From the IMG/VR virus record IMGVR_UViG_3300017782_000149, positions 1 to 28,449 of that record: a stretch of 28,449 nucleotides of DNA. One strand, 5' to 3'. This document shows, piece by piece, positions 2,822-26,139 of the stretch; within the stretch, counting starts at the first letter, position 1, and each line of letters begins with the position of its first letter. The notes under the pieces are model-generated. The model saw nothing but the letters and a program-made list of their open reading frames with translations, searched no databases and was not told the DNA's origin. Origin of the DNA: a virus. The position numbers and the translations under genes were made by a program.

Positions 2822-4179
2822 TGGCATATACAGTAAATCAAACAAGCACGGGATTACGAGGGTCGTATGACGAACTTATATATGTTGTAAAAGACGACAC
2901 GCAAACAGGCGAGGCTAAGTATCGCTATGCGTGCGCGGTAACTATCGACAGCACACAGCAGGCAATACTGCAACAATTGCCTAATAACGCAGATAGCGCA
3001 GTATTTAACGTGCGCAATGTAACTGCACAGTTCGTGCATCAGGATGAAGGCGTAATTGAATTAGGGTTTGGCAATACAGATTTGCTTAGTACAAACAGCA
3101 CAGCGTTCAAAACCGCTACTATGCGATTTGGTCATGCTTTTGCAGTTAGCGCAGATGCAGAGCCTACGCTTACCTTGTTGCCTGCGACCGATCAAAGCGC
3201 ACAACTAGTAAACGGAAACTTTACGCTTGCGACTAGTGCATTGATTGACACAGACGACAGTAGCGCATACGTGCCTACAGCAAACACTAAATATTGGCTA
3301 AGTGATACGCCTGAAGTCAACGGTCTGCTTGTTAATTACGTTCTGTTTGACGGCACAAAACGCAGCTATTCAACACTTGCATTTATTAATACTACTGCAT
3401 CATCTGCTACGCATATTGGCGTACGCTATTACAACGGTCAAACAACACTGAGTACGACCGTATACGCAAACAGCGTAGCGAATGGAGGAAAGCCGCCAAG
3501 TACGGTTACATCAGATAGCCAAAGACTATTGTATTTTGGTGTAGGAACGGCAAATCTAGGAGGGCAACTTACAAGCGACATCAACCCTGATTCTAGCACG
3601 AACGACGGATGGACACATTACGACGTTGTACTAGGTAGCAGCGCTGACCCGTTTACAGATGCGGTAAGCAAGACATACCGATTCGTGAAGCTTGACTGCA
3701 CACGTTTTCAAACAGCAGATGATTATTACACCGTGCATTGGTGGAACAGCAAAGGCGGATACGACAGCTTAGTTTTCAGCGGTAAATCAGAGGTTACACA
3801 AACTATGCAACGTGAAGGCTACAGGCAGATAGGAGGCAACAGTTTTGATGCAGACGGCAATGGTACGGATTACGTAAAAAATGCGTACGAAGGCGGCATG
3901 ACACAGGCACACATCCGTACGAAAACAACGCTGAACCTTAACACAGCATTTGGTGATCCTGACCGCTTGTCTCCGCTTATTATGTCACTTGTAAATAGCG
4001 AACGTGTATACGTGTCGCCTGCACGCGATTTTGGACTGAATTCGAATCAAACAAATTCTTCAGGATACGTTCGTGCTTATGTACAGGATAACAGTTTTAC
4101 AAACCGCACAAGCGTAAAGGACGGGCTGACTTCGTTTGCCTTGCAACTTGAGGTGTCACGATACAGACCAACGCGCTAA
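2821..4179 (+). CDS. Tail/baseplate structural protein (about 452 aa), function unknown
   Basis: Long ORF with a TGATG overlap to the upstream gene. The track start at 2818 is TTG and ATG is at 2821. It is rich in S/T/N/A residues, consistent with a beta-rich fold. Confidence 0.7.
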   Translation: MAYTVNQTSTGLRGSYDELIYVVKDDTQTGEAKYRYACAVTIDSTQQAILQQLPNNADSAVFNVRNVTAQFVHQDEGVIELGFGNTDLLSTNSTAFKTATMRFGHAFAVSADAEPTLTLLPATDQSAQLVNGNFTLATSALIDTDDSSAYVPTANTKYWLSDTPEVNGLLVNYVLFDGTKRSYSTLAFINTTASSATHIGVRYYNGQTTLSTTVYANSVANGGKPPSTVTSDSQRLLYFGVGTANLGGQLTSDINPDSSTNDGWTHYDVVLGSSADPFTDAVSKTYRFVKLDCTRFQTADDYYTVHWWNSKGGYDSLVFSGKSEVTQTMQREGYRQIGGNSFDADGNGTDYVKNAYEGGMTQAHIRTKTTLNLNTAFGDPDRLSPLIMSLVNSERVYVSPARDFGLNSNQTNSSGYVRAYVQDNSFTNRTSVKDGLTSFALQLEVSRYRPTR

Positions 4180-7100
4180 TGGGACAACTTGTAGCTATAG
4201 TACAGGGTGGAACAACGCAGTATGAGCTAGACCTGCCTGATACGCCAATTGAATTAAACTTTCAGTTTCAAGACCTAGGCAATCCTCTAGCTTCTAAATC
4301 GCCGTATACGTTTAATTTCAATTTGCCGCCATCGCGGAACAACGTACAGTTCTTTTCTTACTACTACGATTACAACGTTACGTTAGGCACATTTAAGGCA
4401 CAGACAAAAACATCCGTGCAGTTGTATAGCGAGGGCATTTTGCTAATGCAAGGCATACTACAATTACACAAAGCTGATGCGCAAGGATTTCAGGTCAATG
4501 TATTACAGGAACTTGCTGAGTTGTTCCAAGGTGTGCGTAATCTTTCGTTTGAAGAATTGTTTATTACTGAAGCCGGAACAATTGATACAGACCTTGACCA
4601 TGCATTGACATGGACAAACATAACTAATTCTTGGAGTACAGGAAACGACATTACAACAGGTTCTGTAGGTGATGGGGTTATTGTATATCCGTTGTCAGAT
4701 TGGGGACAAAGTTCAGTGTTTAATCAAAATGAAGACACAGGAAACGGTTTTGTATTTGCCGTAACTAACGGTGTCCCAAGCGGGATAGGAACATCTACAG
4801 GATCGGGCGCACTAGAAGCAAGGAATTTTAAACCTGCTATACGCATACAGTATTTGATTGACTACATTTTTAAACGTGTAGGAATCAACTACGAAAGCAC
4901 ATTTTTTGACAGTGAAGAGTTCAAAAAAATTTACATGTTTCTTGCTTCAGAAACTGAGCGAGTTACAAGCCGTGCAACGTACGGTTTTCGTGTAGGCATA
5001 CCAAGTGCGCAAACAATCACTGCGGCAAACGCAGGTATTTATCAGCAGTTAAATTTTACGGTTGAAAGCACTAGCCCGTTTTATGACCCTGACGGCTTAA
5101 TGTCGGGCGGTACATTTACTGTGCCATTTGACGGCAGTTATTTATTTACTTTTCGACTTATTGTAGCTGTACAAACAGTTACAAGTTTTGCATCATACAA
5201 CACGTACTGCAGAATCTTAGTTGACGGTGAAGCCGTATACTTTACTAATTACGTGCCGTGTGACCCCTCGGAAACTATGGTCTGTGACTATCAAGTATTT
5301 GTAAATCTTACTGCAAGCAGTCAAGTTAAAGTTGAGTTTTCGCACACGAATACATTTGACAGCGTTACTGTTATTCCCACAAATTCTACAGGCACAACAT
5401 TTTGGCATTTATTAATGTACGATGCTACAGAGGGTTTTGTTGATGTGTCAGCAAATTTTCCTGACATAAGTGTAGATGAGTGGTTACGAGCAATATTTGA
5501 AAAGTTCAATATCGTACTAGTCACAAAGCCAACCGATCCGAGTATAGTTTACGCAGAACCGTGGGCTAATTGGTGGAGCGCAGGAACAACACGTAAAGAC
5601 TTTACAAATAAGGTTGATGCAGATAGCATTTTAATTGAGCCTACGACAAGGTTTCAGGTAAAAGAATACACGTTTGAAGATGGAGAAGGCGATGATTTTT
5701 TAAATAAATACTATCAACATCGTCATCAAAAAACATTCGGCAGATACGTTTATGACAATGACAAGGATTTTGTTACAGGCAAAGAAAAATCAAGCGACAT
5801 TTTTCAACCGCTGAGGTTACGCAAAGTTTTTCAAAATATGCAGGGTACAGGCGAAAGCCTAGTGCCTAACGTGTTATTGCCTGCGTTTTGGGATTGGCAC
5901 GACGGAAGCGATGCATCAATATATCACAAGGAAACCGTTAGCTGCAAGCCTGTAATAGCGTATTACCTAGGATTGCAAAACATTGGAAACGGTCACACAT
6001 TTAATTTTGGCGGGAGTAACTACGCAACATATCCATATTTTACAGAATACAATACGGTTGGGGTAACTACTAGTACAAAATCATTACAATGGGGTTACAG
6101 CTATCCTGACAATTTAGAAGCACCGTTTGTTGGTAACGGTGATACTCCGGGTATAACAAATAAATACTTATTCAATACGTATTGGCTGCGTATGTTTAAT
6201 GAGTTGTACAGCGAAGAAAGCCGGGTGATGTCATGTAAACTTGATGTATCTACGATTGACGTATACAATTTACAGTTTAATGATCTGCTGTATATAGAAG
6301 GCGCATACTGGCGAATAGTAAGTTTGTCAAACTTTACATTAGAAAATAGCACACTTGCAAACGCACAGTTAATAAAAGTCATTGATGCGCCTGCAGTCAC
6401 AATACAGCAGGACTGCAATCTTATTGTTGATTCATTTAACACAGACGGGACAGTTAATTTTATTGATAGTACAGGGGCGACTGCTACAGCTACAGAACAA
6501 TGCTGCACGGCAAACGGCTTTATATGGTCTGAGTCAAACACAGAGTGTTTTTACCGACCCGGTAGCAACTCTACAGGTAGTCATCCTAATGCTCCTGCAC
6601 CCGGAATAAATCAACCAACTCCGGGTAATACAAACGGAGTGTTACCGGGAGCGCCGGGTACGGAAACAATTACAAGCATATTCTCTTTTAAAAATTCAAA
6701 ACCAATTATTGGTGGTACGTATGAACTGAAATTGTACGCAACAACAACGGGTGCTTCATCAGTTAACGCGACAACTAATGATGGCATATCTGCATTTGAA
6801 GTGCCGATGGACACAATCATGTACATTACGTATGACGTAACAATGATTGAAATTGACGGTTCTGCTGCTAGTGTTGGCGAAGCAAGCAATTTCACAGCGC
6901 GTACTTCAATTGCAAACACGAGAGATTTAGCGAGCAATTCGCCGACCGTACGCAGGGTAGGTGGATCACCGACTGTAATAAATACCGAAAAAGACTCAGG
7001 AGTTACAGCAAGCATTGATACGTCAACAGCGCAGCGAATAGCAGGAGCAGATGCATCTTACAGTGTAGCATGCACGGGTCAGGCAAACGTAACGGCGCAA

Positions 7101-7244
7101 TGGCTTATTACAGCTAAGGTGCAAATACTGCAAATACAAGGCAAAGCTGCTCAAACAGAAACAGAAGCGTATTACAATTTGACTGGCAATGTCAAAATAC
7201 ACGTTAATGATAGCTCAAACACAGCATTAGATTTTAACGGATGA
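4179..7244 (+). CDS. Large tail/baseplate protein (1021 aa), putative host-specificity protein with a C-terminal module behind a Pro/Gly linker
   Basis: TAATG overlap with the upstream gene. It is the largest ORF. A Cys cluster EQCCTANGFIWSESNTECF is followed by the linker GSHPNAPAPGINQPTPGNTNGVLPGAPG and a terminal domain of about 190 aa. Confidence 0.7.
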   Translation: MGQLVAIVQGGTTQYELDLPDTPIELNFQFQDLGNPLASKSPYTFNFNLPPSRNNVQFFSYYYDYNVTLGTFKAQTKTSVQLYSEGILLMQGILQLHKADAQGFQVNVLQELAELFQGVRNLSFEELFITEAGTIDTDLDHALTWTNITNSWSTGNDITTGSVGDGVIVYPLSDWGQSSVFNQNEDTGNGFVFAVTNGVPSGIGTSTGSGALEARNFKPAIRIQYLIDYIFKRVGINYESTFFDSEEFKKIYMFLASETERVTSRATYGFRVGIPSAQTITAANAGIYQQLNFTVESTSPFYDPDGLMSGGTFTVPFDGSYLFTFRLIVAVQTVTSFASYNTYCRILVDGEAVYFTNYVPCDPSETMVCDYQVFVNLTASSQVKVEFSHTNTFDSVTVIPTNSTGTTFWHLLMYDATEGFVDVSANFPDISVDEWLRAIFEKFNIVLVTKPTDPSIVYAEPWANWWSAGTTRKDFTNKVDADSILIEPTTRFQVKEYTFEDGEGDDFLNKYYQHRHQKTFGRYVYDNDKDFVTGKEKSSDIFQPLRLRKVFQNMQGTGESLVPNVLLPAFWDWHDGSDASIYHKETVSCKPVIAYYLGLQNIGNGHTFNFGGSNYATYPYFTEYNTVGVTTSTKSLQWGYSYPDNLEAPFVGNGDTPGITNKYLFNTYWLRMFNELYSEESRVMSCKLDVSTIDVYNLQFNDLLYIEGAYWRIVSLSNFTLENSTLANAQLIKVIDAPAVTIQQDCNLIVDSFNTDGTVNFIDSTGATATATEQCCTANGFIWSESNTECFYRPGSNSTGSHPNAPAPGINQPTPGNTNGVLPGAPGTETITSIFSFKNSKPIIGGTYELKLYATTTGASSVNATTNDGISAFEVPMDTIMYITYDVTMIEIDGSAASVGEASNFTARTSIANTRDLASNSPTVRRVGGSPTVINTEKDSGVTASIDTSTAQRIAGADASYSVACTGQANVTAQWLITAKVQILQIQGKAAQTETEAYYNLTGNVKIHVNDSSNTALDFNG

Positions 7245-7368
7245 AGTATTGGATAAACAGCATAGGATATGGACTGCCTGTAGCAATCCGCTTGACAGTA
7301 GGAAAAAACATTAAGGGTACGGGTATATGGAGGTATTGGTACGGGATTAATGACTTGAATCAAAGCAG

Positions 7369-9204
7369 TTGGAAGAAGCTGAGATTAATATTAAACAACA
7401 GATGGCAGCAGAAGCGAAAGTAAAAATTAAGGGCGAAGAAACCGTAACATCAGCGGCGGAGAGTGCAGGCGATGCGGTAGAGCGTTTAGAGCGCCGTATG
7501 TCAAAGGCAGGCAAAGGCGCAAAAAAAGATTGGGGCGGAATTGGCGATTTATTTAGTCAGTTTTTGCCGCGCGGTTTTCAGCGCACTATTCGTTCGTTTA
7601 AATCTACACAACGTCAAATTGGACGTTTATCGCGTGGTTTCAAATCGCTACGCGGTGCTATTGCCGCTACAGGCATTGGTGCGTTTGTAGTGGCATTAGG
7701 CCTTATTGTAGATAATTGGGACAAAATTAGCGCATCTATTACAGGCGCAAGCGATGCAACAAAAGATGCCGTTACGGAAAGCGAGAAGCTAGTTAAGGCA
7801 AGCAAGGATCAGCTTGATAACATTTCTGCAACGGAAAACATTCTAAAGTTGCAGGGAAAAACGGAAGAGGACATACTGCTAATGCGTATGCAGGGTACAG
7901 ACGAAGCCATTATGCAGCAAAGGATTTTAATAGAAAACCTTAAAAAACAGAAAGACGAAGAAACTGAGGCGGCAGAGCGTGTAACTAATTACACAAAAGC
8001 AATTGTTGGCTTAGTAACATTCCCTCTTGTCGCTGCATTAGGCGCAATTGACACAATTAGTGCAGGTCTAGCGCAACTTGGTGTTTTAGAAGAAGGTACA
8101 AATCTTGCAACCGGATTTGTCGAAGGTATTGCAGGCATGCTCTTTACACCGCCTAAAGAAGTGCAAGAAAAGGCGGATGAATCAATTGAAGCAGCAGAGG
8201 CACAATTACAACGCTTAGAAAATACGCGTGCAGGCTACGCCTTACGTCAACAAGCTAACGAAGAAAAAGAAGCAGAGCAGGCACGCCGTAAAAGAGAACA
8301 GATTGACAAACAGCGATTAGCAGATGAGAAGTTTGTACAGGATCAGTTGCTGAAGCTGCAGCAGGACTACGAAATACGCAGCTTAGAAGATGCTGATGCA
8401 CAAGCTAAGAAGCGGCTTGAGTTACAGTTTAAAGCAGATATGCTTGAATTAATACAGCGCGGTGCTACGTATGATGCATTACTAGCCCTGCAACGTAAGT
8501 ATGAAATGGACGTAGCAGAGATTGACGAAGCCGCTGCACAGCGTAAATCAGATAGGGAGGCGCAACTTTCTGACCAATTATACGAAAGGTCTTTAACTGA
8601 TTTTGAGCGCCAAGAAATGGCTTTAATGGCACAGTATGACCGCATGGTAGAAATGGCGGGAGATAATGCCGAATTGATAGCGCGAATTAACGCTGCGTAC
8701 ATTGAGGACTACGAACAAATTGTACAAGATTCCGCAGACGAAGAAGAAAACATACAGTTGCGTAAAATTGATGCGTTAGTTAATGCAACAAGCGGACTAT
8801 TCCGCACCATGGGTCAATTAGCAGAAGACAATAGTGAGCAGCAAAAGAACCTTGCAATAGCCGATGTATTGCTTAATCAGGCAATGGCTATGGCAGGTGC
8901 TATTCGCGGCGCAACAGATTCAGCAAAAGACCCTATTAGCCTTGCAACGTATATTATAACTATGCTAGGAACGGTATTGGGCAGCTTTGTAGGCGTAAAA
9001 CAAATACTTGATAAAGCAGGTGGTTCGGGTGGTGGTGTTGGTGGTGGTGGTGGCGGTGTAACTAGATCGGGATTTGCAGATAACATGGTTACACCATTGC
9101 CTGCAAGACTCGATACGCCTGATATGCAAGCATACGTTGTACAGTCACAATTACAAGGGCAAAATGCAATGGCACAACAACTTAATAGTAAGATTACGCT
9201 TTGA
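7369..9204 (+). CDS. Tape-measure-like protein (coiled-coil, TM segments, Gly tract)
   Basis: About 600-611 aa (TTG 7369 or ATG 7402). Long charged heptad-like stretches (EAAEAQLQRLENTRAGYALRQQANEEKEAEQARRKREQ) sit beside hydrophobic segments (AIAATGIGAFVVALGLIV) and GGSGGGVGGGGGGV. This is a typical TMP composition. Confidence 0.55.
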   Translation: MEEAEINIKQQMAAEAKVKIKGEETVTSAAESAGDAVERLERRMSKAGKGAKKDWGGIGDLFSQFLPRGFQRTIRSFKSTQRQIGRLSRGFKSLRGAIAATGIGAFVVALGLIVDNWDKISASITGASDATKDAVTESEKLVKASKDQLDNISATENILKLQGKTEEDILLMRMQGTDEAIMQQRILIENLKKQKDEETEAAERVTNYTKAIVGLVTFPLVAALGAIDTISAGLAQLGVLEEGTNLATGFVEGIAGMLFTPPKEVQEKADESIEAAEAQLQRLENTRAGYALRQQANEEKEAEQARRKREQIDKQRLADEKFVQDQLLKLQQDYEIRSLEDADAQAKKRLELQFKADMLELIQRGATYDALLALQRKYEMDVAEIDEAAAQRKSDREAQLSDQLYERSLTDFERQEMALMAQYDRMVEMAGDNAELIARINAAYIEDYEQIVQDSADEEENIQLRKIDALVNATSGLFRTMGQLAEDNSEQQKNLAIADVLLNQAMAMAGAIRGATDSAKDPISLATYIITMLGTVLGSFVGVKQILDKAGGSGGGVGGGGGGVTRSGFADNMVTPLPARLDTPDMQAYVVQSQLQGQNAMAQQLNSKITL

Positions 9205-9215
9205 ATAAACGGCGG

Positions 9216-9223
9216 TATATTGT
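9216..9223 (+). promoter_or_regulatory. TATATTGT box (followed by AAATTGT), 26 nt upstream of ATG 9250; candidate -7/-10-like promoter element
   Basis: It lies in the 45-nt gap after the tape-measure gene. The same TATTG(T/C) core is seen 18-26 nt upstream of three other operon-initial ATGs (23079, 27404, 27846). Confidence 0.3.
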
Positions 9224-9249
9224 AAATTGTACGCAACACGTAAAAAAGT

Positions 9250-9540
9250 ATGGAAAAGAAAAAGTTTAGTTATAACGGTTGGGCAAGCTATGAAACTTGG
9301 CTTGTATCGGTTTGGGAGTTTATTCCCTTGTTTGTGGAATACTACTATGATCGGGAAGCAACACCTGAAGACGTAGACTCTCGAGAAATCGAAGATTTAT
9401 TTATGGAGTATGTCGAAATCCCACGAGGAGCAAGCATTGTGAATGACATGATGACAACCGCCATCAGCCGCATTGACTTTCGTGAAATCGCAGAGCACGT
9501 AGAAACTGACCTGCAAGACATGATTAACGACAACTACTGA
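9250..9540 (+). CDS. Small acidic protein (96 aa), first gene of the acidic micro-ORF array
   Basis: ORF with an A-rich leader. It has an N-terminal W-rich motif NGWASYETWLVSVW and an acidic C-terminal half. Confidence 0.7.
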   Translation: MEKKKFSYNGWASYETWLVSVWEFIPLFVEYYYDREATPEDVDSREIEDLFMEYVEIPRGASIVNDMMTTAISRIDFREIAEHVETDLQDMINDNY

Positions 9541-9782
9541 TGGGTAAGCTAGACCGCGCATTAGACAAAATTACTGTACGGCTACTTGACTCTTTGCGTG
9601 AAGGCGAAGATTATTTTCTGACTGACACGTTTACGCTGTACAAATACGGGGACGGCAGCGGGATTATTGTTGTTGCTTTAGATACGGACGATGACTACGT
9701 AGAAATTTTGCAAGTATTGTACGACGATCGCAGCATTGACTATGAAGTTCTTGACAACTATCTGTATAACAAATACTCTTAA
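9540..9782 (+). CDS. Small acidic protein (80 aa)
   Basis: TGATG overlap with the upstream ORF. 18 D/E versus 8 K/R residues. Confidence 0.7.
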   Translation: MGKLDRALDKITVRLLDSLREGEDYFLTDTFTLYKYGDGSGIIVVALDTDDDYVEILQVLYDDRSIDYEVLDNYLYNKYS

Positions 9783-9787
9783 AACTA

Positions 9788-9850
9788 ATGGGTTTAACTG
9801 ACCGTTCTATTTTGACGTTTAACCCGCTTGAACATATGCGTTACGACTAA
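9788..9850 (+). CDS. 20-codon mini-ORF (MGLTDRSILTFNPLEHMRYD) whose TAA is the TAA of the first junction motif
   Basis: ATG 9788 is in frame to TAA 9848-9850. It fills the only gap in the array, but it is very short, so coding status is uncertain. Confidence 0.25.
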   Translation: MGLTDRSILTFNPLEHMRYD

Positions 9851-9864
9851 ACAAAAGAGATATG
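9848..9864 (+). repeat. Junction motif copy 1: TAAACAAAAGAGATATG
   Basis: Stop-spacer-start motif. Its ATG is the start of 9862-10059. Confidence 0.9.
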
Positions 9865-10059
9865 ACATACGAAATTGAAACATCTGACCGTGATTCTGAT
9901 AAGGTTGCAGACATCATTGATACCTACACGTACCGAGGTGTAGAAAAAGAAGAGCAAACGCGCGATGGTGTTTTGTACACCGTAAACGCGGATGATGATG
10001 AAATTCGTGACTTAGAAAATGCCTTAGATGATGCGCGTGTAGATTGGCACTACTACTAA
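9862..10059 (+). CDS. Small hyper-acidic protein (65 aa)
   Basis: 20 D/E versus 7 K/R residues in 65 aa. The start lies in junction motif copy 1 and the stop in copy 2. Confidence 0.75.
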   Translation: MTYEIETSDRDSDKVADIIDTYTYRGVEKEEQTRDGVLYTVNADDDEIRDLENALDDARVDWHYY

Positions 10060-10073
10060 ACAACAGAGATATG
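10057..10073 (+). repeat. Junction motif copy 2: TAAACAACAGAGATATG (consensus)
   Basis: Its TAA is the stop of 9862-10059. Its ATG is the start of the 44-aa ORF. Confidence 0.9.
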
Positions 10074-10205
10074 AATAGTCAAGAAATAGACACTCTACAT
10101 GAGTTGCTGATGGATTTTCAGAATAATGTACTTGAAGGAGCAATGGGAAGTGCGGAAGATCGAGCTATTTCTCAGGCAATTTCTATTATAGAAGAATACC
10201 TTTAA
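10071..10205 (+). CDS. Small acidic protein (44 aa), absent from the supplied ORF track
   Basis: Hand translation gives MNSQEIDTLHELLMDFQNNVLEGAMGSAEDRAISQAISIIEEYL. It is bounded by junction motif copies 2 and 3. Confidence 0.6.
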   Translation: MNSQEIDTLHELLMDFQNNVLEGAMGSAEDRAISQAISIIEEYL

Positions 10206-10219
10206 ACAAAAAAGATATG
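10203..10219 (+). repeat. Junction motif copy 3: TAAACAAAAAAGATATG
   Basis: Its TAA is the stop of 10071-10205. Its ATG is the start of 10217-10432. Confidence 0.9.
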
Positions 10220-10432
10220 GAATTTGATGACATTATAGATGAGGTGTTAGGTGACATGAACACTAGTCAATCAGAAAACGCTGCGGTCGAGGCGGTTTTA
10301 AATGATATGTACGACCAAATTAAACGGGCATTAGAAAACCTTGCATACGATTATCCAGATGTTGATATGCCTGACGTTTATGATGTTCGTGACGAAATAC
10401 AATCTGACTACTTTGACTCATTGAACATTTAA
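10217..10432 (+). CDS. Small hyper-acidic protein (71 aa)
   Basis: 20 D/E versus 3 K/R residues in 71 aa. The start lies in junction motif copy 3. Confidence 0.75.
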   Translation: MEFDDIIDEVLGDMNTSQSENAAVEAVLNDMYDQIKRALENLAYDYPDVDMPDVYDVRDEIQSDYFDSLNI

Positions 10433-10440
10433 CTTTAGGC

Positions 10441-10457
10441 TAAACAACAGAGCTATG
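10441..10457 (+). repeat. Junction motif copy 4: TAAACAACAGAGCTATG
   Basis: Its ATG is the start of 10455-10718. Here the motif TAA lies 9 nt after the real stop at 10430-10432. Confidence 0.9.
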
Positions 10458-10718
10458 ACTGTATATGCAATAGGCGACGTTATCGAAGAATTCCTGTTGA
10501 GCGATGACTTCTACCACATACCGAATTTTGACACTTATGTAATGGATAAAGATTACATAGAATACCGTGTTGTAGATAATTCATACGATGACATTCGGCT
10601 TATGGAAGATTTTGAAAACGAGTTTAATCGAGAATTTCGAGGGGAGTGGGAGTTAAGCGTTACAGGTGATGAGCAACGTATGGTCATTGCTGCACAATCG
10701 CACATTGACCGCCGATAA
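10455..10718 (+). CDS. Small acidic protein (87 aa)
   Basis: 22 D/E versus 8 K/R residues. It is bounded by motif copies 4 and 5. Confidence 0.75.
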   Translation: MTVYAIGDVIEEFLLSDDFYHIPNFDTYVMDKDYIEYRVVDNSYDDIRLMEDFENEFNREFRGEWELSVTGDEQRMVIAAQSHIDRR

Positions 10719-10732
10719 ACAACAGAGATATG
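10716..10732 (+). repeat. Junction motif copy 5: TAAACAACAGAGATATG
   Basis: Its TAA is the stop of 10455-10718. Its ATG is the start of 10730-10936. Confidence 0.9.
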
Positions 10733-10936
10733 AGTAGAGATATTTTAGTTTATTGGTACAATGAGGATGACGTGAGGATAAGCGTTGACGAGTATGGCTA
10801 TAGCAACATTGACGTTTACACGCACAATAGCGGAACTATTGTAGTAGAAACAAGCGTCGGTATTGCAGACACTATGGATTTCTTTTTGTACTTGGAAGAC
10901 GAATTTGGCAAGGGCAACGTAGAGATTCTTTACTAA
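10730..10936 (+). CDS. Small acidic protein (68 aa)
   Basis: 14 D/E versus 3 K/R residues. It is bounded by motif copies 5 and 6. Confidence 0.75.
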   Translation: MSRDILVYWYNEDDVRISVDEYGYSNIDVYTHNSGTIVVETSVGIADTMDFFLYLEDEFGKGNVEILY

Positions 10937-10950
10937 ACAACAGAGATATG
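10934..10950 (+). repeat. Junction motif copy 6: TAAACAACAGAGATATG
   Basis: Its TAA is the stop of 10730-10936. Its ATG is the start of 10948-11190. Confidence 0.9.
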
Positions 10951-11190
10951 ACTAAAATCGAAAATTCACTGGCTGAGGCTGTAATTCAGGGTTTAGAATA
11001 TTTAATCACACATAAGGGAACGGCGTGGTTTGATGGTAGAGGCGCAGACCCTAAAAGTGTTGTTGCAGAAGTTATGGATGCAATGATGTATGGCGACATT
11101 GATTTGATTGCCGACGTAGCTAATGACAATCAATCGCTTTTTCCTGCCGACATCAGCAGGTATATAGATGAAGTATTTATGCGACTTTAA
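10948..11190 (+). CDS. Small acidic protein (80 aa)
   Basis: ORF bounded by motif copies 6 and 7. D/E-rich (for example MDAMMYGDIDLIADVANDNQ). Confidence 0.75.
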   Translation: MTKIENSLAEAVIQGLEYLITHKGTAWFDGRGADPKSVVAEVMDAMMYGDIDLIADVANDNQSLFPADISRYIDEVFMRL

Positions 11191-11204
11191 ACAACAGAGA
11201 TATG
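11188..11204 (+). repeat. Junction motif copy 7: TAAACAACAGAGATATG
   Basis: Its TAA is the stop of 10948-11190. Its ATG is the start of the 48-aa ORF. Confidence 0.9.
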
Positions 11205-11348
11205 CAGGAACTTAAACGACATTTAATGGAAGCAATTGCTCACTTGGATAGTGCAGCCCTTGAAGCAGAACGAAGCCGCGACACGTTGTTAAGTGACGCT
11301 TTACTTGAAATTATGAACGAGGTGTTTGATATTAAAGACCACTTGTAA
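11202..11348 (+). CDS. Small helical protein (48 aa), absent from the supplied ORF track
   Basis: Hand translation gives MQELKRHLMEAIAHLDSAALEAERSRDTLLSDALLEIMNEVFDIKDHL. It is bounded by motif copies 7 and 8. Confidence 0.6.
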   Translation: MQELKRHLMEAIAHLDSAALEAERSRDTLLSDALLEIMNEVFDIKDHL

Positions 11349-11360
11349 ACAACAGAGATG
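11346..11360 (+). repeat. Junction motif copy 8, 2 nt shorter: TAAACAACAGAGATG
   Basis: Its TAA is the stop of 11202-11348. Its ATG is the start of 11358-11564. Confidence 0.9.
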
Positions 11361-11564
11361 TTAGTAGAAATCGACTACAAGACGATCCAACAACTGCAAG
11401 ACCTTTTCGGTAGAGAGGGTTTGCGCGATGTGGTAGAATACATTGAGAAAACGAATGACCGCATGTTTAACATCGTTAAGATTGACGAATCGTCGCGTTA
11501 CCCTACAGTCGATGATTTCTTTGATGTGCTTGATGACTATAACATTGACTACCGTATTGTATGA
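11358..11564 (+). CDS. Small acidic protein (68 aa), last gene of the array
   Basis: 16 D/E versus 8 K/R residues. Its stop overlaps the protease start (ATGA). Confidence 0.75.
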   Translation: MLVEIDYKTIQQLQDLFGREGLRDVVEYIEKTNDRMFNIVKIDESSRYPTVDDFFDVLDDYNIDYRIV

Positions 11565-12586
11565 GTAAATTAATCGAATTACTTATTGACGAAAACGAAG
11601 ATGCATGGGGCGTAGAGGCAATTAGCCTTGTAAAGTTCCCTGCTATCGAAGAGAATTTTGTGTTCTTTAGCAAGCAAGGCAACACACGCGGAGTAAGCCT
11701 TGCAGCGGTAGATGAAGAGCAGCAGGTATTAGTAGGCGCTGCCCTAATCCCTGATAAAAACATTCCGCGTTACGACGAAGCAACGGACGAGGAATACGAG
11801 GTATTTTTTAGCAAGGAAACAGTGAAGCTTGCATCGGAACTGTACATTAAGCAAAACCGCACTAATGATCACACACGCGAACATCAAGAATCTATTGATG
11901 AGGTCAGCGTTGTAGAAAGTTGGATTGTGGAAGACCCTGATGTAGACAAAAGTAAATTGTACGGTTTAAATATGCCGCAGGGTACGTGGATGGTAAAGGT
12001 TCACGTAGCAAACAATGAGGTATGGCAAGAAGTAAAGGCGGGAAAGCTGCGCGGCTTTAGCATTGAGGGTTATTTTGCAGATAAGTTAGTCAGCAACAAA
12101 AAAGAAGCTGTAGAAACAGAAGAAACGGAAATGAAAGAACCGTGTTGGGCTGACTATGAGCAAATCGGCACAAAGATTAAGGACGGCAAAGAAGTACCGA
12201 ACTGCGTACCTATGAAACAAAGCAAGATGCAGAAGACCTTAAAAAAATTGTGGTTTGCCATTCGTCGTAAGTTTTACAACGAAGTAAGCCTACAAGACGG
12301 AACAGTCATTGCAACAGAAGACGATACGTTGACTGCAGGATCAGCCGTATTTAAGATTGACGAAGAAGGCATGCCTGCAGACATGGACAACGGTAAATAC
12401 ACTACAGAGGCGGGCGTAGAAATGGAAGTGTTTGAAGGCGTACTGACTGAGTACGACGGTGAAGTCAAAGCTGTAGAGGAGAAAGAAGAAGAAGTTGAGA
12501 TGCATAACGAAGTGCAGCATTTAAACGCTATGAAAGTTCGGTACTACAAAGCACTGTTAACTAAACGATACTACGACCGTTACTAA
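11561..12586 (+). CDS. Prohead protease, XkdF-like (Peptidase_S78_2-type) with a C-terminal extension
   Basis: The N-terminus GVEAISLVKFPAIEENFVFF is typical of XkdF-like phage proteases. A PCWADYEQIGTKIKDGKEVPNCVP motif is present. The gene lies upstream of scaffold and capsid genes. Confidence 0.65.
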   Translation: MSKLIELLIDENEDAWGVEAISLVKFPAIEENFVFFSKQGNTRGVSLAAVDEEQQVLVGAALIPDKNIPRYDEATDEEYEVFFSKETVKLASELYIKQNRTNDHTREHQESIDEVSVVESWIVEDPDVDKSKLYGLNMPQGTWMVKVHVANNEVWQEVKAGKLRGFSIEGYFADKLVSNKKEAVETEETEMKEPCWADYEQIGTKIKDGKEVPNCVPMKQSKMQKTLKKLWFAIRRKFYNEVSLQDGTVIATEDDTLTAGSAVFKIDEEGMPADMDNGKYTTEAGVEMEVFEGVLTEYDGEVKAVEEKEEEVEMHNEVQHLNAMKVRYYKALLTKRYYDRY

Positions 12587-12849
12587 TGAATCCACTAATT
12601 GACCGTATATGGAGTACATGGACGAACAGCGCGCAAGAGGAATTGCTTGCTATGATTGCAGAGTTTCGTATGGACTACATATTAGATGAAACCTTTAATC
12701 ACGCCTTGGATATTGTTGAGGAGGCTATTCTACAAGAAAATTACGACCGTGCAAAAGTAATCTTTACTGAAATGTCGCCTGCCGTATTTACGCGGTTAGA
12801 TTTTGAACTGTTTGTTGAATTACTTGACGAAGCGGTTTACGAATACTAG
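12586..12849 (+). CDS. Hypothetical protein (87 aa)
   Basis: TAATG overlap with the protease gene. Acidic and apparently helical. Confidence 0.65.
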   Translation: MNPLIDRIWSTWTNSAQEELLAMIAEFRMDYILDETFNHALDIVEEAILQENYDRAKVIFTEMSPAVFTRLDFELFVELLDEAVYEY

Positions 12850-12875: not shown

Positions 12876-13421
12876 ATGGATATTAAAAAATTCATGGAAG
12901 AAGAAGAAAAAGAGGACTACATGGTAGAAGAGGAAGAAACCATGCAGCAAGAAGAAGAAGTGACTGAGAGTCCTGACAGTCACGAACAATTTGTAAACCT
13001 TTTGGTAGATATGGGACTGTCTGCCGAACAAGCCGAAGCTGTGCATGAGATGGCAATGGAGTTAGCTGATGCAGGCAACGGTGAAACACAAACACAAGAA
13101 GAAGTGAAAGAAGACAAAAAAGTCGAAACGTCACGACAACGCCGACCTCGACGAGCTATGCGCCGACGTGGTGATTTTAAGCGCAGCGAACGCAGCGAAC
13201 GTCGTGAAATGTCAAGCGAGCAAAAAATGGAACGTCGCTTGCAGCGTTTAGAACGTCAAAATCGTTCTCTACGTAATCAATTGCGTGAATTTGGGGCTGC
13301 ACCTGCTGCACGACCATTGCGAAACGCACCAACAGTAACACAAGAAAATGCTCCTGGGTTTAAGGCTTTGCCTAAATCAACACAGGCAGCTATGGACTTG
13401 ATTAATCAGTATCAGAAATAA
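12876..13421 (+). CDS. Scaffolding-like protein
   Basis: 181 aa, highly charged. The N-terminus is E-rich and the middle is R-rich (RQRRPRRAMRRRGDFKRSERSERRE), with a coiled-coil-like LQRLERQNRSLRNQLRE. It lies immediately upstream of the capsid gene. Confidence 0.6.
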   Translation: MDIKKFMEEEEKEDYMVEEEETMQQEEEVTESPDSHEQFVNLLVDMGLSAEQAEAVHEMAMELADAGNGETQTQEEVKEDKKVETSRQRRPRRAMRRRGDFKRSERSERREMSSEQKMERRLQRLERQNRSLRNQLREFGAAPAARPLRNAPTVTQENAPGFKALPKSTQAAMDLINQYQK

Positions 13422-14476
13422 TGAGTAAATATTTATCACGATCTCGACGTCGAGCGTTTGCAGCACCCCTTGTATCGCCCGATACTACCTATGCCGGAGA
13501 ACGTGCAGCACCTTATGTTGCACCTGCATTGAAATTAGCAAAAACGCTAACGGAAGGTTGGGTACGTCAGGTTGACGGCATACAAAACAAAGCAGTAATT
13601 TCTAGCTTGTCATCTACAGGCGTAGTTAAAAACGCTGCATGCGACTATACGTCAACTGATAGCTTGACACTTGGTGAGCGCGTACTTACACTGTCAGATT
13701 TGACGGTTATGGAATCGCTATGCCGTGGAACATTGTTGCCTACATGGGCAGGGATGACGGGCGCACGTCAAGATATGTCTGCAGGTAACCCTGAGTTTGT
13801 ACAATTTTCATTGGCTACAATTGCAGGATACGCTGCACAAGACGTAGAGAACGGAATTTGGAAAGGCATGGACTTGACAACTGACGTTACAGGCTTCCTG
13901 TCTGACGATGCTACGTTTGACAACACAGGATACCGTGCATCTATTTTGGCTGCAGGCGGTACAACTGGATCACCTGTGGCTGCTGAGAAGATTATCTCAT
14001 CAGGCGGTTTCAGCGCAACAAATAGCCAAATTTTGGGTACTACAGGTTGTTTTCACGAAGCATACAACCAAGCGTTGACATCATGTCCTGCAATCTTGAA
14101 TCGACCTGACATTGCGTTCTACGTGTCGCCAAAAACAGCAGGTAATTTCATGCAGGCGTTGGGTCAGTCAGGCAGCAATCAGGGTGTTAATACACAAGGT
14201 GTAAATCAAGCGTTTGCTTCAATTCAATACTTGGGTATTCCAATTCACGTATGCCCCGGTATGTTTAATGATGCAATCATTTTGACGTACGAAGATAACT
14301 TGGTAGTTGGTTCTAACTTGAACACTGATTACACAAATGCTGCGTACATTGATGCTTGGAAATACGACGGTTCAGACAACGTAAAAATTACTATGAAGTT
14401 TGGACTGGGCATGCAGGTAGGCATTCCCGGCGATTGCGTTGTAGGTGCATTGACTGGTGTAATTACTGACCAATAA
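13421..14476 (+). CDS. Major capsid protein (HK97-fold expected)
   Basis: 351 aa, following protease and scaffold with a TAATG overlap. Size and position are typical of a major capsid protein. No close motif was verified. Confidence 0.7.
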   Translation: MSKYLSRSRRRAFAAPLVSPDTTYAGERAAPYVAPALKLAKTLTEGWVRQVDGIQNKAVISSLSSTGVVKNAACDYTSTDSLTLGERVLTLSDLTVMESLCRGTLLPTWAGMTGARQDMSAGNPEFVQFSLATIAGYAAQDVENGIWKGMDLTTDVTGFLSDDATFDNTGYRASILAAGGTTGSPVAAEKIISSGGFSATNSQILGTTGCFHEAYNQALTSCPAILNRPDIAFYVSPKTAGNFMQALGQSGSNQGVNTQGVNQAFASIQYLGIPIHVCPGMFNDAIILTYEDNLVVGSNLNTDYTNAAYIDAWKYDGSDNVKITMKFGLGMQVGIPGDCVVGALTGVITDQ

Positions 14477-15074: not shown

Positions 15075-15440
15075 ATGGTACAACTCTTTAAGCAAGGCAC
15101 ACCGCAATACGCGCGGATCAAGTTAGACGGTTACACAGGAACGGGTTACATCTTTGTTACGCTAGAAAATGTTTTGACGGGATACCAAAAAACTGTAACG
15201 CTTAACAATCAGACAACTAATGAGCGCTATACGCAGGTAACAATTCCTATGCAAACGTGGTACAATGATGCTGATTTACACGAAGGTTTTTATACCTTAA
15301 AGCTGACTGACGGAGCTACAAAAACATACGCGGATCGTTTAGCGTTTGTACGTGCTTCATCTAGTTCTAGCTTTACTGAGAGTACGTACACAGCGTACGA
15401 CGACACTGACAATCAAGTTTACGAAGTATACGAGAAGTGA
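15075..15440 (+). CDS. Hypothetical small beta-rich virion protein (121 aa)
   Basis: First ORF after the terminator. Its stop overlaps the portal GTG (GTGA). Confidence 0.65.
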   Translation: MVQLFKQGTPQYARIKLDGYTGTGYIFVTLENVLTGYQKTVTLNNQTTNERYTQVTIPMQTWYNDADLHEGFYTLKLTDGATKTYADRLAFVRASSSSSFTESTYTAYDDTDNQVYEVYEK

Positions 15441-17440
15441 ATAAGAATAATTTTTCCATCTTAGAGTATCAGTCTACAAACGCGCCTTTGTTTCGTGAGA
15501 ACAGCAACAAGCTGTGGATTGATTGCGGTGCTGACAACCTGTACCCTTTGTACCTAGAAGAACTGTATGCTAGTAGCAGCATGCACGGCGCAATAATTAA
15601 GGGTGTTGCTGAAATGATTTTTGGTGACGGTCTTAATGCTACAAACAAAGACGACCATATCGAGCAATGGCTCAAGGTTAAAGAAATTTTTGGTAACGAA
15701 GAATGCCTAAAAAAAGCTGCGTTTGATATTAAATTATACGGTCAGGCGTTTCTAAACATTATTTGGTCACAGGATCGCACAACAATAAGTAAAGTGCATC
15801 ATATTCCTGCATCTACCATTCGTTGTGGGCTTGCAGATGACGAAGACAACGTACCGCTGTTTTACCACAAAACCGATTGGACAGAATTAAACACGAAGCC
15901 GCATGTAATTCCGGCGTTTTCTAATACCGATCGTACAGCAGCTAGTCAAATTATACACGTAAAAAATTACACACCTTTATCTTTTTACTATGGTTTGCCG
16001 GATTACCTACCTTGCACAAACTATGCACAGGTAGAGGCAGACCTTAGCGCGTATCATTTAAGTTCAATTAATCAGGGTTTTTTCCCTAGCACGATTATGA
16101 ACTTTAACAGCGGCGTACCTACGGAGGACGAACGCGCAGAATTGGAAAGATTGGTATACCAAAAATTTGGAGGCGCAAACAATGCGGGCAAAATTCTGAT
16201 GACTTTTAACGATTCGCAGGACACAGCGCCGACTATTGAAAGCTTTAATTTGTCAGATGCGCATCAAGTGTTTGATTACCTCAGCGAACAATGCAGCAAG
16301 AAGGTATTAAGCGGACATCGTGTTACGTCGCCTTTGTTGTTCGGTGTGCGTGACACAGGCGGAGGATTTGGAAACAACGCAGACGAAATGAAGGATGCCT
16401 ATGACCTGTTTTATAACACGGTAATACTTCCCTTCCAACGTTTGTTTTTAGATGCCTTAAAACCCGTTTTTGCGGCTAGTAGCGTAACGCTAGATATGTA
16501 CTTTACACCGCTGAAGCCTGCATCATTTATTGATACGGACAATTTGTTTGACAGCAACGCGCCGGACAGCCGTAAACGAGATGCTAGTTACGATGGCGGT
16601 CAAATTGATAGCGCAATGGAAATTGTGCGACAAGTCAAAGAGGGCGTTTTGTCTATTGATCAGGCAAAGGTATTCTTAGTGCAGATGCTGCAGTTTACGC
16701 CGGAGGTAGCAGATGCCTTGTTTACTGAAGATAGCGCCATTGAACAAATCGAAGAAGAACAAGACGAGCAAGAAGCAACTGCACAAACGCAATTGTCATG
16801 TTGCGGCGGTGACGGTCACATAGAATTAAAAAAAAAAGGAACGAGCTTAAAGGCAAGGATGCGTGAATTTGATGCGCGACTAGGAAAGGATTATTATTAC
16901 GTGCGTTCTGAATGGGTAAGCGATGTGCAGGCAGATGCAAAACTGCATACGCAAAAACACTTGTTTTACGAACAGTACGCAAACCCCGAAATAGTAGAAC
17001 AAAACAGTTACGGCGACATTTTGAGCCGTGAAGGATTCGTATTTGCGGTGCGCTACATGTACGAGGAAACAGCAGAAACGCCAAGTCAAGGAGGTAACAG
17101 CCGCGATTTCTGTACTGATATGATGGAACTTTCTGATGAGGGCGTAGAGTATCGGTATGAGGATATTGTCGCTATGGAAGGCGAAAACGCGGAATTTGGT
17201 CACAACGGCAGGCCATACTCTATATGGCTCCACAAAGGCGGAATTTACTGTAGACATGGATTCAGCAGAAACATCTACATCTATGCACCCGACGGCGAGC
17301 CAAAAGAAATGGATATGGTAGAAATTGAGGGCGCGTGGGAAGACGTAATGCGAAAAGTAGGAAACAACCCAGACACAGTTCAAAAAGGTGAAGAATACGT
17401 CGCACCGATTGACACACCGTCAAGGGGAGCATATAGATAA
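15437..17440 (+). CDS. Portal protein fused to a MuF/SPP1 gp7-like head-morphogenesis C-terminal domain
   Basis: GTG start. The N-terminal 465 aa or so has portal-like features (WIDCGADNLYPLYLEELYASSSMHGAIIKGVAEMIFGDG). An acidic linker and an A10 run follow. The C-terminal 200 aa or so carries SRDFCTDMM ... YSIWLHKGGIYCRHGF, reminiscent of MuF-type C...C/CRH motifs. Confidence 0.6.
   Translation: MNKNNFSILEYQSTNAPLFRENSNKLWIDCGADNLYPLYLEELYASSSMHGAIIKGVAEMIFGDGLNATNKDDHIEQWLKVKEIFGNEECLKKAAFDIKLYGQAFLNIIWSQDRTTISKVHHIPASTIRCGLADDEDNVPLFYHKTDWTELNTKPHVIPAFSNTDRTAASQIIHVKNYTPLSFYYGLPDYLPCTNYAQVEADLSAYHLSSINQGFFPSTIMNFNSGVPTEDERAELERLVYQKFGGANNAGKILMTFNDSQDTAPTIESFNLSDAHQVFDYLSEQCSKKVLSGHRVTSPLLFGVRDTGGGFGNNADEMKDAYDLFYNTVILPFQRLFLDALKPVFAASSVTLDMYFTPLKPASFIDTDNLFDSNAPDSRKRDASYDGGQIDSAMEIVRQVKEGVLSIDQAKVFLVQMLQFTPEVADALFTEDSAIEQIEEEQDEQEATAQTQLSCCGGDGHIELKKKGTSLKARMREFDARLGKDYYYVRSEWVSDVQADAKLHTQKHLFYEQYANPEIVEQNSYGDILSREGFVFAVRYMYEETAETPSQGGNSRDFCTDMMELSDEGVEYRYEDIVAMEGENAEFGHNGRPYSIWLHKGGIYCRHGFSRNIYIYAPDGEPKEMDMVEIEGAWEDVMRKVGNNPDTVQKGEEYVAPIDTPSRGAYR
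16828..16837 (+). other. A10 homopolymer (codons TTA AAA AAA AAA) at the portal/MuF-like domain boundary
   Basis: Counted in the sequence. The -1 frame stops at 16864-16866 and the +1 frame stops at 16848-16850. Confidence 0.9.
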
Positions 17441-25313: not shown

Positions 25314-25766
25314 ATGGTGCGCGGTTGGATTGTGTCGGAGGTAGGGCGGCTAATAAAAGACATGAACATGAAGACGACAATTAGCAGTGACGAAGAACTT
25401 ATGTTTTGCTGCAGGTCAATAATTGAAGAACGTCCTGCTTTGACATTGGAAGAAATCAGGGTAGTGTTTGACATGGTTCGTAAAGGCAAGTTTGGTAAAT
25501 TGTACGAACGATTAAAAACAGCCGAGATTCTAGGGTTTTTTGAGAAGTACGCAGGAACTACACGCGCAGATATGTTAGAGGAACGCAACCGTAACAGGCA
25601 GCACGAACACGAATTAGAGTCAAGGGAAGCCTTGCAGCGTATAGATGCCGGGTCACTTGTAGAAAGCGTACGGGATCACACACCAACACCGGAGGGTTTA
25701 GGTACGCGACTTAGAAAACAATGGGATGCCAAAACTGAGCAAAGCAAAGGAGAAAAAGAAACTTGA
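25314..25766 (+). CDS. Hypothetical replication-module protein
   Basis: The track ORF starts at 25161 but overlaps the upstream gene by 77 nt. The first ATG after that gene's stop is 25314 (TTG at 25296 is also possible). Confidence 0.5.
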   Translation: MVRGWIVSEVGRLIKDMNMKTTISSDEELMFCCRSIIEERPALTLEEIRVVFDMVRKGKFGKLYERLKTAEILGFFEKYAGTTRADMLEERNRNRQHEHELESREALQRIDAGSLVESVRDHTPTPEGLGTRLRKQWDAKTEQSKGEKET

Positions 25767-26139
25767 TGCAGCACTGAGCCGATACGTACGTGCAAGTAAT
25801 GCAGACGATGCAGGTTACGTGTCGTGTTTTACGTGTGGTGTAAAAAAATTATGGAAGGAGCTTGATTGCGGTCATTTTATTACACGCGCCAAGTTAGCAA
25901 CGCGATTTCTTTACAAGCCGTTAGACGGTCTAACCAATGTTCAGCCGCAATGCAAGCGATGTAACGGATTTTTAGGCGGTCAACAATTTGTGTTTGCGCA
26001 AAAATTAAACGAAATTTATGGAGAAGGCACAGCAGAAAACATACTGTTTCTTAGCAATATGCACGTAGATTTTACTGCAGAAGAATATCAAGAGATGCGC
26101 ACGCATTACGATGACTTGTTTCGAAAACTTCATAAATGA
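25726..26139 (+). CDS. ninG: NinG/Rap-like recombination endonuclease
   Basis: LSRYVRASNADDAGYVSCFTCGVKK...LDCGHFITRA...RF...NVQPQCKRCNGFLGGQ parallels the lambda NinG pattern FIRERD..CISCG..DAGHY..LRF..N..QC..CN..SGN. Confidence 0.7.
   Translation: MPKLSKAKEKKKLDAALSRYVRASNADDAGYVSCFTCGVKKLWKELDCGHFITRAKLATRFLYKPLDGLTNVQPQCKRCNGFLGGQQFVFAQKLNEIYGEGTAENILFLSNMHVDFTAEEYQEMRTHYDDLFRKLHK

Follow-up and report, generated by a model that had tools for sequence, protein, structure and literature searches.

What joins a row of unrelated small genes whose only shared sequence is the seam between them? The question is raised by IMG/VR virus record IMGVR_UViG_3300017782_000149, of which positions 1 to 28,449 (the window, meaning the whole stretch of 28,449 nucleotides analyzed here) represent a phage genome whose genes all lie on a single strand. 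Between its tape-measure-like gene and its protease gene lies an array of short open reading frames (ORFs), here called cassettes, separated by a 17-nt element, TAAACAACAGAGATATG, that we term the linker and that consists of a TAA stop, an 11-nt A/C-rich spacer and an ATG start. The genome is nearly complete; a 28,356-bp contig of run SRR10522318 has the same array. Based on the comparisons described below, we consider it probable that the linker plays two parts, serving both as the standard intercistronic linker and as the crossover patch for small acidic accessory genes that form a hypervariable array. This array lies within the region for head morphogenesis in a family of marine tailed phages of ~28 kb.

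The linker and its cassettes across the phage family

A pattern scan of the window allowing up to three mismatches identified eight copies of the linker, all on the plus strand, whereas dinucleotide-preserving shuffles contained 0.22 on average and never more than 2. Four copies are exact (10057..10073, 10716..10732, 10934..10950, and 11188..11204). The others are TAAACAAAAGAGATATG at 9848..9864, with one mismatch, TAAACAAAAAAGATATG at 10203..10219, with two mismatches, TAAACAACAGAGCTATG at 10441..10457, and a shortened form, TAAACAACAGAGATG, at 11346..11360. The sequence and the ORF table agree that every copy supplies the ATG of an ORF (8/8, 44 to 87 codons), and the TAA closes the preceding ORF in seven of the eight, if the 20-codon mini-ORF at 9788-9850, which ends on the first linker ahead of the first cassette, is counted. 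The exception is the copy at 10441, the TAA of which is unused; the upstream ORF stops at 10430-10432, 8 nt earlier. The junctions are the sole DNA repeats within the array, and the ORFs between them lack significant similarity to each other (best BLASTP E value 0.003 with composition correction off). The remaining genes of the window have ATGA or TAATG overlaps or A-rich leaders instead of the linker, which itself contains no Shine-Dalgarno (SD) sequence. The copies, their use as stop and start, the dissimilarity of the ORFs between them, and the other types of leader had been described in the initial annotation, made from the letters alone, and that observation proved correct in every detail. 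Of the roles that it proposed, the present analysis speaks neither for nor against an RNA-processing or protein-binding site; the other two, an initiation signal and a boundary for cassette exchange, are taken up below.

The exact 17-mer was found in 67 IMG/VR loci, 51 of which encode homologues of the core proteins of the window; the remaining 16, with one copy each and no such homology, are taken as chance hits. Arrays of 3 to 11 copies, always on the coding strand and with a median spacing of 251 nt, are present in 45 of these loci, which belong to ~28-kb tailed phages, and 199 of the 225 ORFs that start at a linker ATG terminate on the TAA of the next linker. A sequence logo built from 195 distinct contexts has 1.4 to 1.95 bits at each of the 17 positions and drops to background straight away on both sides, where only codon periodicity is visible. 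The linker-carrying phage family is old: the exact 17-mer occupies 118 of the 195 contexts, while the core proteins of the family range from 25% to 100% identity to those of the window, and the linker does not change even among phages in which this identity is as low as 25% to 80%. Among homologous cassette pairs, the upstream linkers are 91% to 95% identical irrespective of whether the cassettes themselves share 50% or 96% identity. The cassettes are diverse as well. The 255 linker-headed ORFs comprise 87 BLAST clusters, made up of 85 small-cassette families, the prohead protease and a 272-aa protein, and hidden Markov model (HMM)-versus-sequence searches reduce the 85 small families to 77 groups. 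The cassette proteins are mostly 44 to 110 aa long, and all families are acidic (median isoelectric point, pI, 4.06; D+E 21%, K+R 7%).

That the motif belongs to these junctions and is not enriched elsewhere was borne out in 596 Gb of cellular genomes, where 65 loci were found and about 70 are expected by chance; therefore, the linker is neither a host repeat nor a prophage marker. Only one of the cellular loci holds an array, a phage-like contig of ~5 kb binned in a metagenome-assembled genome (MAG). This contig (locus L099, JAFMIA010000163.1, from a 'Pseudomonadales bacterium' MAG of Delaware Bay) is 4,977 bp long and carries a five-copy array along with the tape-measure and protease genes of the family. 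Either the contig was binned wrongly, or it hints at a host at odds with the Bacteroidota host discussed below. No match to the array region was obtained in a nucleotide search against the 50,697 GenBank phage records of INPHARED. Nor is an array of this kind present at the equivalent position of Nonlabens phage P12024S, the nearest relative that has been isolated. In the literature searched, no publication with the motif or a description of the array was found.

In 10 related loci, the linker directly supplies the start codon of the prohead protease. The position of the array relative to the protease gene varies by lineage, being upstream in the type represented by the window and downstream in others (L033/L203, in the latter at 6955-9457, as well as L158, L176, L182, and L185-L190). 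The downstream arrays lie between the protease gene and homologues of the window genes at 12586-12849 and 12876-13421.

The order of cassette families varies from genome to genome, and the points at which homology between genomes begins and ends are concentrated on the linker. Among the 965 homology blocks obtained from pairwise comparisons of the arrays and their surroundings, the left end coincides exactly with a linker edge in 190 of 902 cases and the right end in 156 of 892, and 41% of left ends and 36% of right ends are within 12 nt of one, compared with ~10% for ends placed uniformly over the 251-nt spacing. Individual pairs illustrate this precision. Loci L012 and L059 differ by exactly one cassette between two linkers, and their identity steps from 87.9% to 99.9% at a linker. 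L005 and L061 are 97.2% identical over 9,954 bp up to the last base of the first linker, beyond which they have a single cassette in common. L014 and L043, with flanks that are 97.9% identical, share three cassettes at 98% to 100% identity that are interleaved with unrelated ones. The closest relative of the window, L049, is 79% to 86% identical in the flanks, and its homology to the window ends at 9782 and resumes at 11182, by the linker copy at 11188, indicating that six cassettes have been replaced. Homology to a second close relative, L008, also ends at 9782. In the distantly related L021, the linker-bounded cassette corresponding to 9845-10076 is 94.4% identical to that of the window, and elsewhere only 379 bp of the protease gene can be aligned, at 66%. 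The TARA contig L216 has flanks that are 93% to 94% identical and two cassettes in common with the window, in the opposite relative order; one of these, at 9862-10059 in the window, is 87.5% identical to its counterpart at a different array position. The one small ORF that is connected to the protease gene by an ATGA overlap, with no linker, has been kept with the protease in all four genomes that have it.

The suggestion in the initial annotation that the junctions act as boundary sequences is supported: relatives have different cargo between the same junctions, and breakpoints, one-cassette insertions or deletions, and identity steps are located exactly on the linker. We regard cassette exchange at the linkers, as read from these genome comparisons, as close to certain. 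Variants in the 3' half of the linker stayed together with the cassette downstream of them in 28 of 141 comparisons, versus 10 of 180 for variants in the 5' half; these comparisons are not independent, and the bias toward the 3' half is only suggestive of crossovers inside the linker.

The junction had also been described as conserved, and this holds within a lineage, where the linker is exact, and fails for the family as a universal sequence. A protease profile scan, from which the best 80 of 390 relatives were surveyed, revealed sister lineages with linkers of their own: TAAACCACAACGATATG in L185, L187, L189, and L190; TAAAACAACTTAAAGATG in L142, L144, L151, and others; and TAACCAACAGAGATATG in L158. 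L142 and L151 carry a second array with yet another linker, TAATAAAAAGAATATG. In these two genomes (arrays at 5483-5978 and 8882-9168 in L142 and at 5193-5715 and 7933-9206 in L151), one array is upstream and one downstream of the protease gene, and each has its own exact linker. All linker types consist of a TAA, an A/C-rich spacer of 10 to 12 nt, and an ATG, and in each of them position -12 is an A and position -3 a purine. One lineage has decayed junctions. Relatives with a higher GC content (L152, L155, L157, L175, L184, and L195; GC 50% to 57%) have three to five small ORFs between the tape-measure and protease genes and no uniform linker; L184 and L175 have a different, partly repeated leader, CAAACTGATTT[A/G]AG ATG.

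Translation, recombination and competing explanations

Every linker includes the start codon, and almost all also include the stop codon of the ORF before it. The sequence of the linker, its fixed position relative to the ATG, and its presence at the head of the essential prohead protease gene in 10 loci are consistent with the SD-independent initiation or reinitiation signal that the initial annotation had proposed. An SD-like 4-mer precedes 2 of the 33 non-array genes of the window, versus 10.5% of random windows, and the leaders of these genes are A-rich and G-poor. SD-independent initiation in Flavobacterium johnsoniae is favored by low secondary structure and by A at -3, -6, -12, and -13 (PMC6847099). 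In the linker, A occupies -6, -11, -12, and -13, the most invariant positions are -12 and -6 (one mismatch each in 195 contexts), and the 5' half (-13 to -8) is predicted to be unpaired with a probability of 0.75 to 0.81, versus 0.43 for the background. It is similar to Bacteroidia initiation regions in that it is A-rich and unstructured, has A at -6, -12, and -13 ahead of an ATG, and lacks an SD sequence; however, these regions are defined by a loose bias, whereas the linker is an exact 17-mer with a G at -3 (PMC6847099). We consider a role in translation moderately likely.

Transcription signals were looked for at the junctions as well. A scan for sigma-70-like promoters between 7000 and 14000 returned 13 matches, compared with 14.4 +/- 4.0 in shuffled sequence, none of them tied to junctions. 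In scans for terminators and for Bacteroidetes -33/-7 promoter patterns, none of the junctions gave a match. Since the junctions have neither promoters nor terminators, the array is most simply one polycistronic unit. Three core proteins of the window have their nearest isolated relatives in phages of Bacteroidota: the portal (31% identity) and the capsid-like protein (23%) in Nonlabens phages, and the large terminase (36% to 37%) in Bacteroides and Flavobacterium phages. Taken together with the SD-poor, A-rich leaders, this makes a marine Bacteroidota host likely.

In the mechanism that we favor, each linker on the polycistronic mRNA would end one cistron and, 11 nt on, offer an unstructured, A-rich, SD-independent start region to the next, such that any ORF set between two linkers would be translated. 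The stop, the initiation region, and the start are all inside the shared 17 bp, so that a crossover leaves the reading frames intact. The linker would in this way act as a universal adaptor, in which a crossover at any point joins two cassettes with neither damaged and every ORF translatable. Because the same 17 bp, present at every junction and in every member of the lineage, are the only homology among otherwise unrelated cassettes, they are suited to be the crossover patch, and homologous recombination is moderately likely to be the mechanism of exchange. Within one genome, recombination between linker copies would remove or duplicate cassettes and possibly release them as circles, whereas recombination between co-infecting relatives would swap, insert, or permute them. 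Frequent exchange would also keep the linker uniform in the gene pool, and cassettes with a mutated linker would leave circulation. Such homogenization would explain why the linker is exact per lineage and per array; uniformity within a gene pool, and even within one array, is the signature that concerted evolution by recombination would be expected to leave.

Several points weigh against this dual role. A stretch of 17 bp is short for RecA-type homologous recombination. A factor that binds this exact sequence could explain the strict conservation of each of the 17 positions just as well. The Pfam and PHROG scans of the window proteins recognized no single-strand annealing protein, and the only recombination-type enzymes that they recognized are a NinG/Rap junction endonuclease and a metallophosphatase-type exonuclease. 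The linker has a G at -3, where A is favored in F. johnsoniae, and it contains two G in a region that is G-poor in the other leaders of this phage. With regard to the host, the sole array in a cellular bin is that of the 'Pseudomonadales' MAG. Finally, one finding in favor of the dual role is that cassette pairs that are at least 85% identical number 62 within linker group A and none across groups, where sharing is at low identity only; phylogeny, and possibly the host, are confounding factors in this comparison.

The first of the competing explanations is that the linker is an expression signal only, selected for translation initiation or termination-reinitiation, while the mosaicism results from illegitimate recombination followed by selection for intact genes. 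This would account for the fixed position of the linker relative to the ATG and the TAA and for the same linker at the head of the protease gene, and it is consistent with the predicted accessibility and with the match of the A positions to known Bacteroidia determinants. However, other genes of the same genome, including the capsid gene, have quite different leaders, and no special complementarity to 16S rRNA, the feature of TURBS-like termination-reinitiation signals, was detected: with the E. coli sequence, a proxy from which that of the host may differ, the best duplex has -10.1 kcal/mol, compared with -10.3 +/- 1.8 for shuffled motifs. The different exact linkers in sister lineages of the same genome plan, and the two in one genome, argue that no single sequence is demanded by the ribosome. 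Further, breakpoints that coincide to the nucleotide with the linker edge in hundreds of comparisons are not what random illegitimate events would give. We therefore consider an exclusive role in expression unlikely.

A second explanation, which we likewise hold to be improbable, views the linker as the operator of a phage-encoded sequence-specific factor that co-regulates the cassettes, with exchange being secondary. The factor would be an mRNA-cutting endoribonuclease or an RNA-binding regulator; T4 RegA is an example of an RNA-binding translational regulator. The conservation of all 17 positions, which goes beyond the need of a generic A-rich leader, the overlap of the site with the start codon, and the lineage-specific variants, which resemble co-evolution with a partner, are all in keeping with an operator. 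Nevertheless, no RNA-binding regulator or ribonuclease was recognized among the window proteins by the Pfam and PHROG scans, and no Rfam family was matched in the window. Two linkers in one genome would require two factors, and some lineages keep an array of small genes despite decayed, heterogeneous junctions. The uniformity of the linker within a pool, and within an array, also argues against a single genome-wide trans-acting factor.

A related possibility is that the linker is the dedicated recognition site of a phage-specific machinery for cassette exchange or expression, in which the site-factor pair of each lineage bounds a closed pool of anti-defence genes. This could take the form either of an integron-like capture without a known recombinase or of a factor that binds the exact 17-mer. 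We consider such a machinery doubtful. Capture by a recombinase in the manner of integrons, in which cassettes are taken up and excised at a site-specific recombination site, appears very unlikely. Its appeal lies in the promoterless ORFs in one orientation with a repeated site between them and in whole cassettes that are gained, lost, and permuted, but no tyrosine or serine recombinase, integrase, transposase, or HNH enzyme was detected in the window by the Pfam and PHROG scans, in which several small ORFs stay unannotated. Moreover, the site, for which an unpaired state is predicted, resembles neither an inverted repeat nor a hairpin, and its placement exactly over stop and start codons is more simply explained by a role in expression.

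It is more improbable still that the linker is a promoter read via a phage sigma-like protein, with each cassette as its own transcription unit and possibly a leaderless mRNA. A sigma-factor-like protein is encoded at 26111-26626 (phrog_1740, E value 1.3e-7), and short exact repeats ahead of many genes are typical of phage-specific promoters. However, the conserved block of 17 nt ends in the ATG and leaves no room for a -35 element, a -10 element, and a leader, there is no conservation upstream of it, and the absence of Bacteroidetes promoter patterns, of sigma-70-like matches above chance, and of terminators between cassettes was noted above. Tandem duplication of one small gene with its junction, followed by fast divergence of the coding parts, would explain cassettes that are alike in size and all very acidic, with a few clusters linked at the HMM level, but it is just as improbable, given that the 85 small families reduce to 77 groups only, that a cluster occurs twice only in L017 (as an 80-aa cassette and the protease gene, with no cassette repeated), and that the same cassette, at up to 100% identity, is found at other positions and beside other neighbors between genomes. 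A tandem-duplication origin, a promoter, and an integron-type attC site are rejected on these points.

Cassette cargo and surrounding genes

None of the cassettes in the window matches a Pfam or PHROG family, the sole match being DUF7249 (Pfam) on a small acidic ORF at 9250..9540, at the upstream edge of the variable region. This ORF follows the tape-measure-like gene (7369..9204), which forms the conserved upstream flank of the array, and precedes an acidic ORF of 80 aa (9540..9782), homologues of which are linker-flanked cassettes in L014, L035, L038, L039, and L062. The mini-ORF at 9788..9850 is conserved in L008. The cassettes proper, all on the plus strand, begin with one of 65 aa and pI 4.05 (9862..10059), for which the near-identical copy in L021 was described above, and one of 44 aa (10071..10205), which is 93% identical at the amino acid level to cassettes in L035, L037, and L040. 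An acidic cassette of 71 aa (10217..10432) is without homologue among the fetched loci. For the 87-aa cassette at 10455..10718, a search of 5.8 billion proteins returned only five homologue clusters; AlphaFold2 models it confidently (predicted local distance difference test, pLDDT, 86) as a helix, two strands, a helix, and two strands, for which a Foldseek search against the PDB returned only generic two-layer alpha/beta matches (best E value 0.046). Two acidic cassettes of 68 aa (10730..10936) and 80 aa (10948..11190) are followed by one of 48 aa (11202..11348), the family of which (cluster 5) is common to L019, L043, L049, L050, and others. The last small ORF (68 aa, 11358..11564) has the ATGA overlap with the protease gene, an attachment that is also found in L049, L216, and L217, and the prohead protease itself (Peptidase_S78_2, 11561..12586) is the conserved downstream flank.

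Pfam searches with 88 sequences representing the cassette families across the phage family returned only DUF3846, a weak POTRA match (E value 0.0018), and ArdA on an extension of the protease. The DUF3846 match (E value 2.3e-13), on one family, is the only strong Pfam match of a small cassette family. The prohead protease is 527 to 544 aa long in some relatives. In L016 (IMGVR_UViG_3300022200_000018) and L018 (3300025646_000981), the C-terminal extension of the 544-aa protease, at residues ~300-544, is an ArdA antirestriction domain (PF07275, E value 2.5e-11, 44.9 bits, cutoff 27); on L219 (1496-3079) there is only a faint precomputed ArdA match on record. The fusion of ArdA, a DNA mimic, to a capsid-internal protease suggests that it may be delivered with the virion. 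The 400-aa protease of L043 (IMGVR_UViG_3300040815_000636) is 77% identical over residues 323-399 to a free-standing 80-aa cassette of L019, L051, and L063, which points to the in-frame fusion of a linker-flanked cassette to the protease. Given the small size and acidity of the proteins, the hypervariability of the locus, and the presence of ArdA nearby, a role of the cargo in anti-defence is a reasonable guess.

The cassette families also have a bias at their ends. Tyrosine is the last residue in 25 of the 85, compared with an overall Tyr frequency of 7.7% (p 3e-9), and the last three bases ahead of the TAA are biased to T-A/T-C/T. This may be due either to the linker weakly reaching into the last codon or to a C-terminal aromatic residue that matters for the proteins.

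Elsewhere in the window, the large terminase (5-1015), the capsid-like protein (13421-14476), and the portal (15437-17440) are encoded on the plus strand, and a metallophosphatase-type exonuclease, an amidase, a replication initiator, NinG/Rap, and the sigma-factor-like protein were also recognized. The gene of the latter adjoins that of the NinG/Rap junction-specific endonuclease (25726-26139), and a sigma-70 region 2 protein is also present in Nonlabens phage P12024S, which is a distant relative. An ORF of 1,021 aa between structural genes (4179-7244) is without any Pfam or PHROG match and has 22% to 72% identity across the phage family. No tRNA gene was found in a tRNA scan of the window.

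Relation to known systems and significance

The modular evolution of phages via short conserved linkers has long been proposed, and a minimal stop-start linker that doubles as a recombination patch is a variant of this known principle, to which the repeats of T4-type phages, those of cluster K mycobacteriophages, and the lambdoid boundary sequences come closest. The promoter-early stem-loops (PeSLs) of T4-type phages are repeated expression signals, each a sigma-70-like promoter plus a terminator stem-loop, located between small non-essential and mostly ORFan genes in hyperplastic regions, and recombination between the repeats has been proposed to drive modular shuffling (PMC2839356, PMC4122927). 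Functionally they are the closest system, as the repeats of both mark the boundaries of insertions, deletions, and replacements between close relatives. However, the linker has no strong sigma-70-like promoter, no terminator stem-loop, and no untranslated gap beyond 11 nt. Its carrier is not a T4-like myovirus but a phage of ~28 kb that has a tape-measure-like gene, and the linker arrays are far more regular, with up to 11 consecutive junctions.

In position and form, the closest counterparts are the start-associated sequences (SAS) of cluster K mycobacteriophages, which are also short, asymmetric repeats in one orientation before the starts of unrelated genes. These are 13 bp long and asymmetric, with the consensus GGGATAGGAGCCC, which contains the SD core AGGAG, and lie 3 to 7 bp from the start codon; they are dispersed over the non-structural half of the genome, half of them with extended inverted repeats, and are absent from the host genome (PMC3203893). 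A role in translation initiation has been proposed for them, and none in cassette exchange (PMC3203893). Like the linker, an SAS sometimes holds the stop codon of the upstream gene. The linker differs in that its sequence is unrelated, has no SD sequence, includes both the ATG and the TAA, forms tight tandem arrays, and coincides with recombination breakpoints.

A conceptual precedent is provided by lambdoid phages, in which short conserved sequences at gene boundaries are said to act as sites of homologous exchange between unrelated modules, as reportedly set out in the modular evolution model of Susskind and Botstein and in the analysis of HK620 by Clark et al. (2001). Those boundary sequences are reportedly few, heterogeneous, and statistically weak, whereas here one exact 17-mer is present per junction in dozens of genomes. 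In integrons, gene cassettes are flanked by attC sites, imperfect inverted repeats that fold into a hairpin and are used by the tyrosine recombinase IntI. The arrays described here are like those of integrons in that they contain promoterless ORFs in one orientation, with diverse cargo mostly of no known function and with content and order that vary among close relatives. They differ in that no integrase was found in the scans of the window, and the site is asymmetric, unpaired, and itself the stop-start junction.

Among natural systems, these phages are an unusually clear case of modular exchange. Their linker is exact and minimal, has as many as 11 copies in a genome, is present in dozens of environmental genomes, and coincides with breakpoints at nucleotide precision, which makes the hypothesis of modular exchange directly testable. 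With the stop and the start inside the exchange site, a phage of an SD-independent host could express whatever ORF it acquires there. As a search handle, the linker could in addition help to harvest cassettes from metagenomes. Because an ArdA domain is present in the same locus of some relatives, the small and very acidic ORFan proteins carried between these linkers, which belong to at least 85 families, are a candidate anti-defence reservoir of marine Bacteroidota phages.

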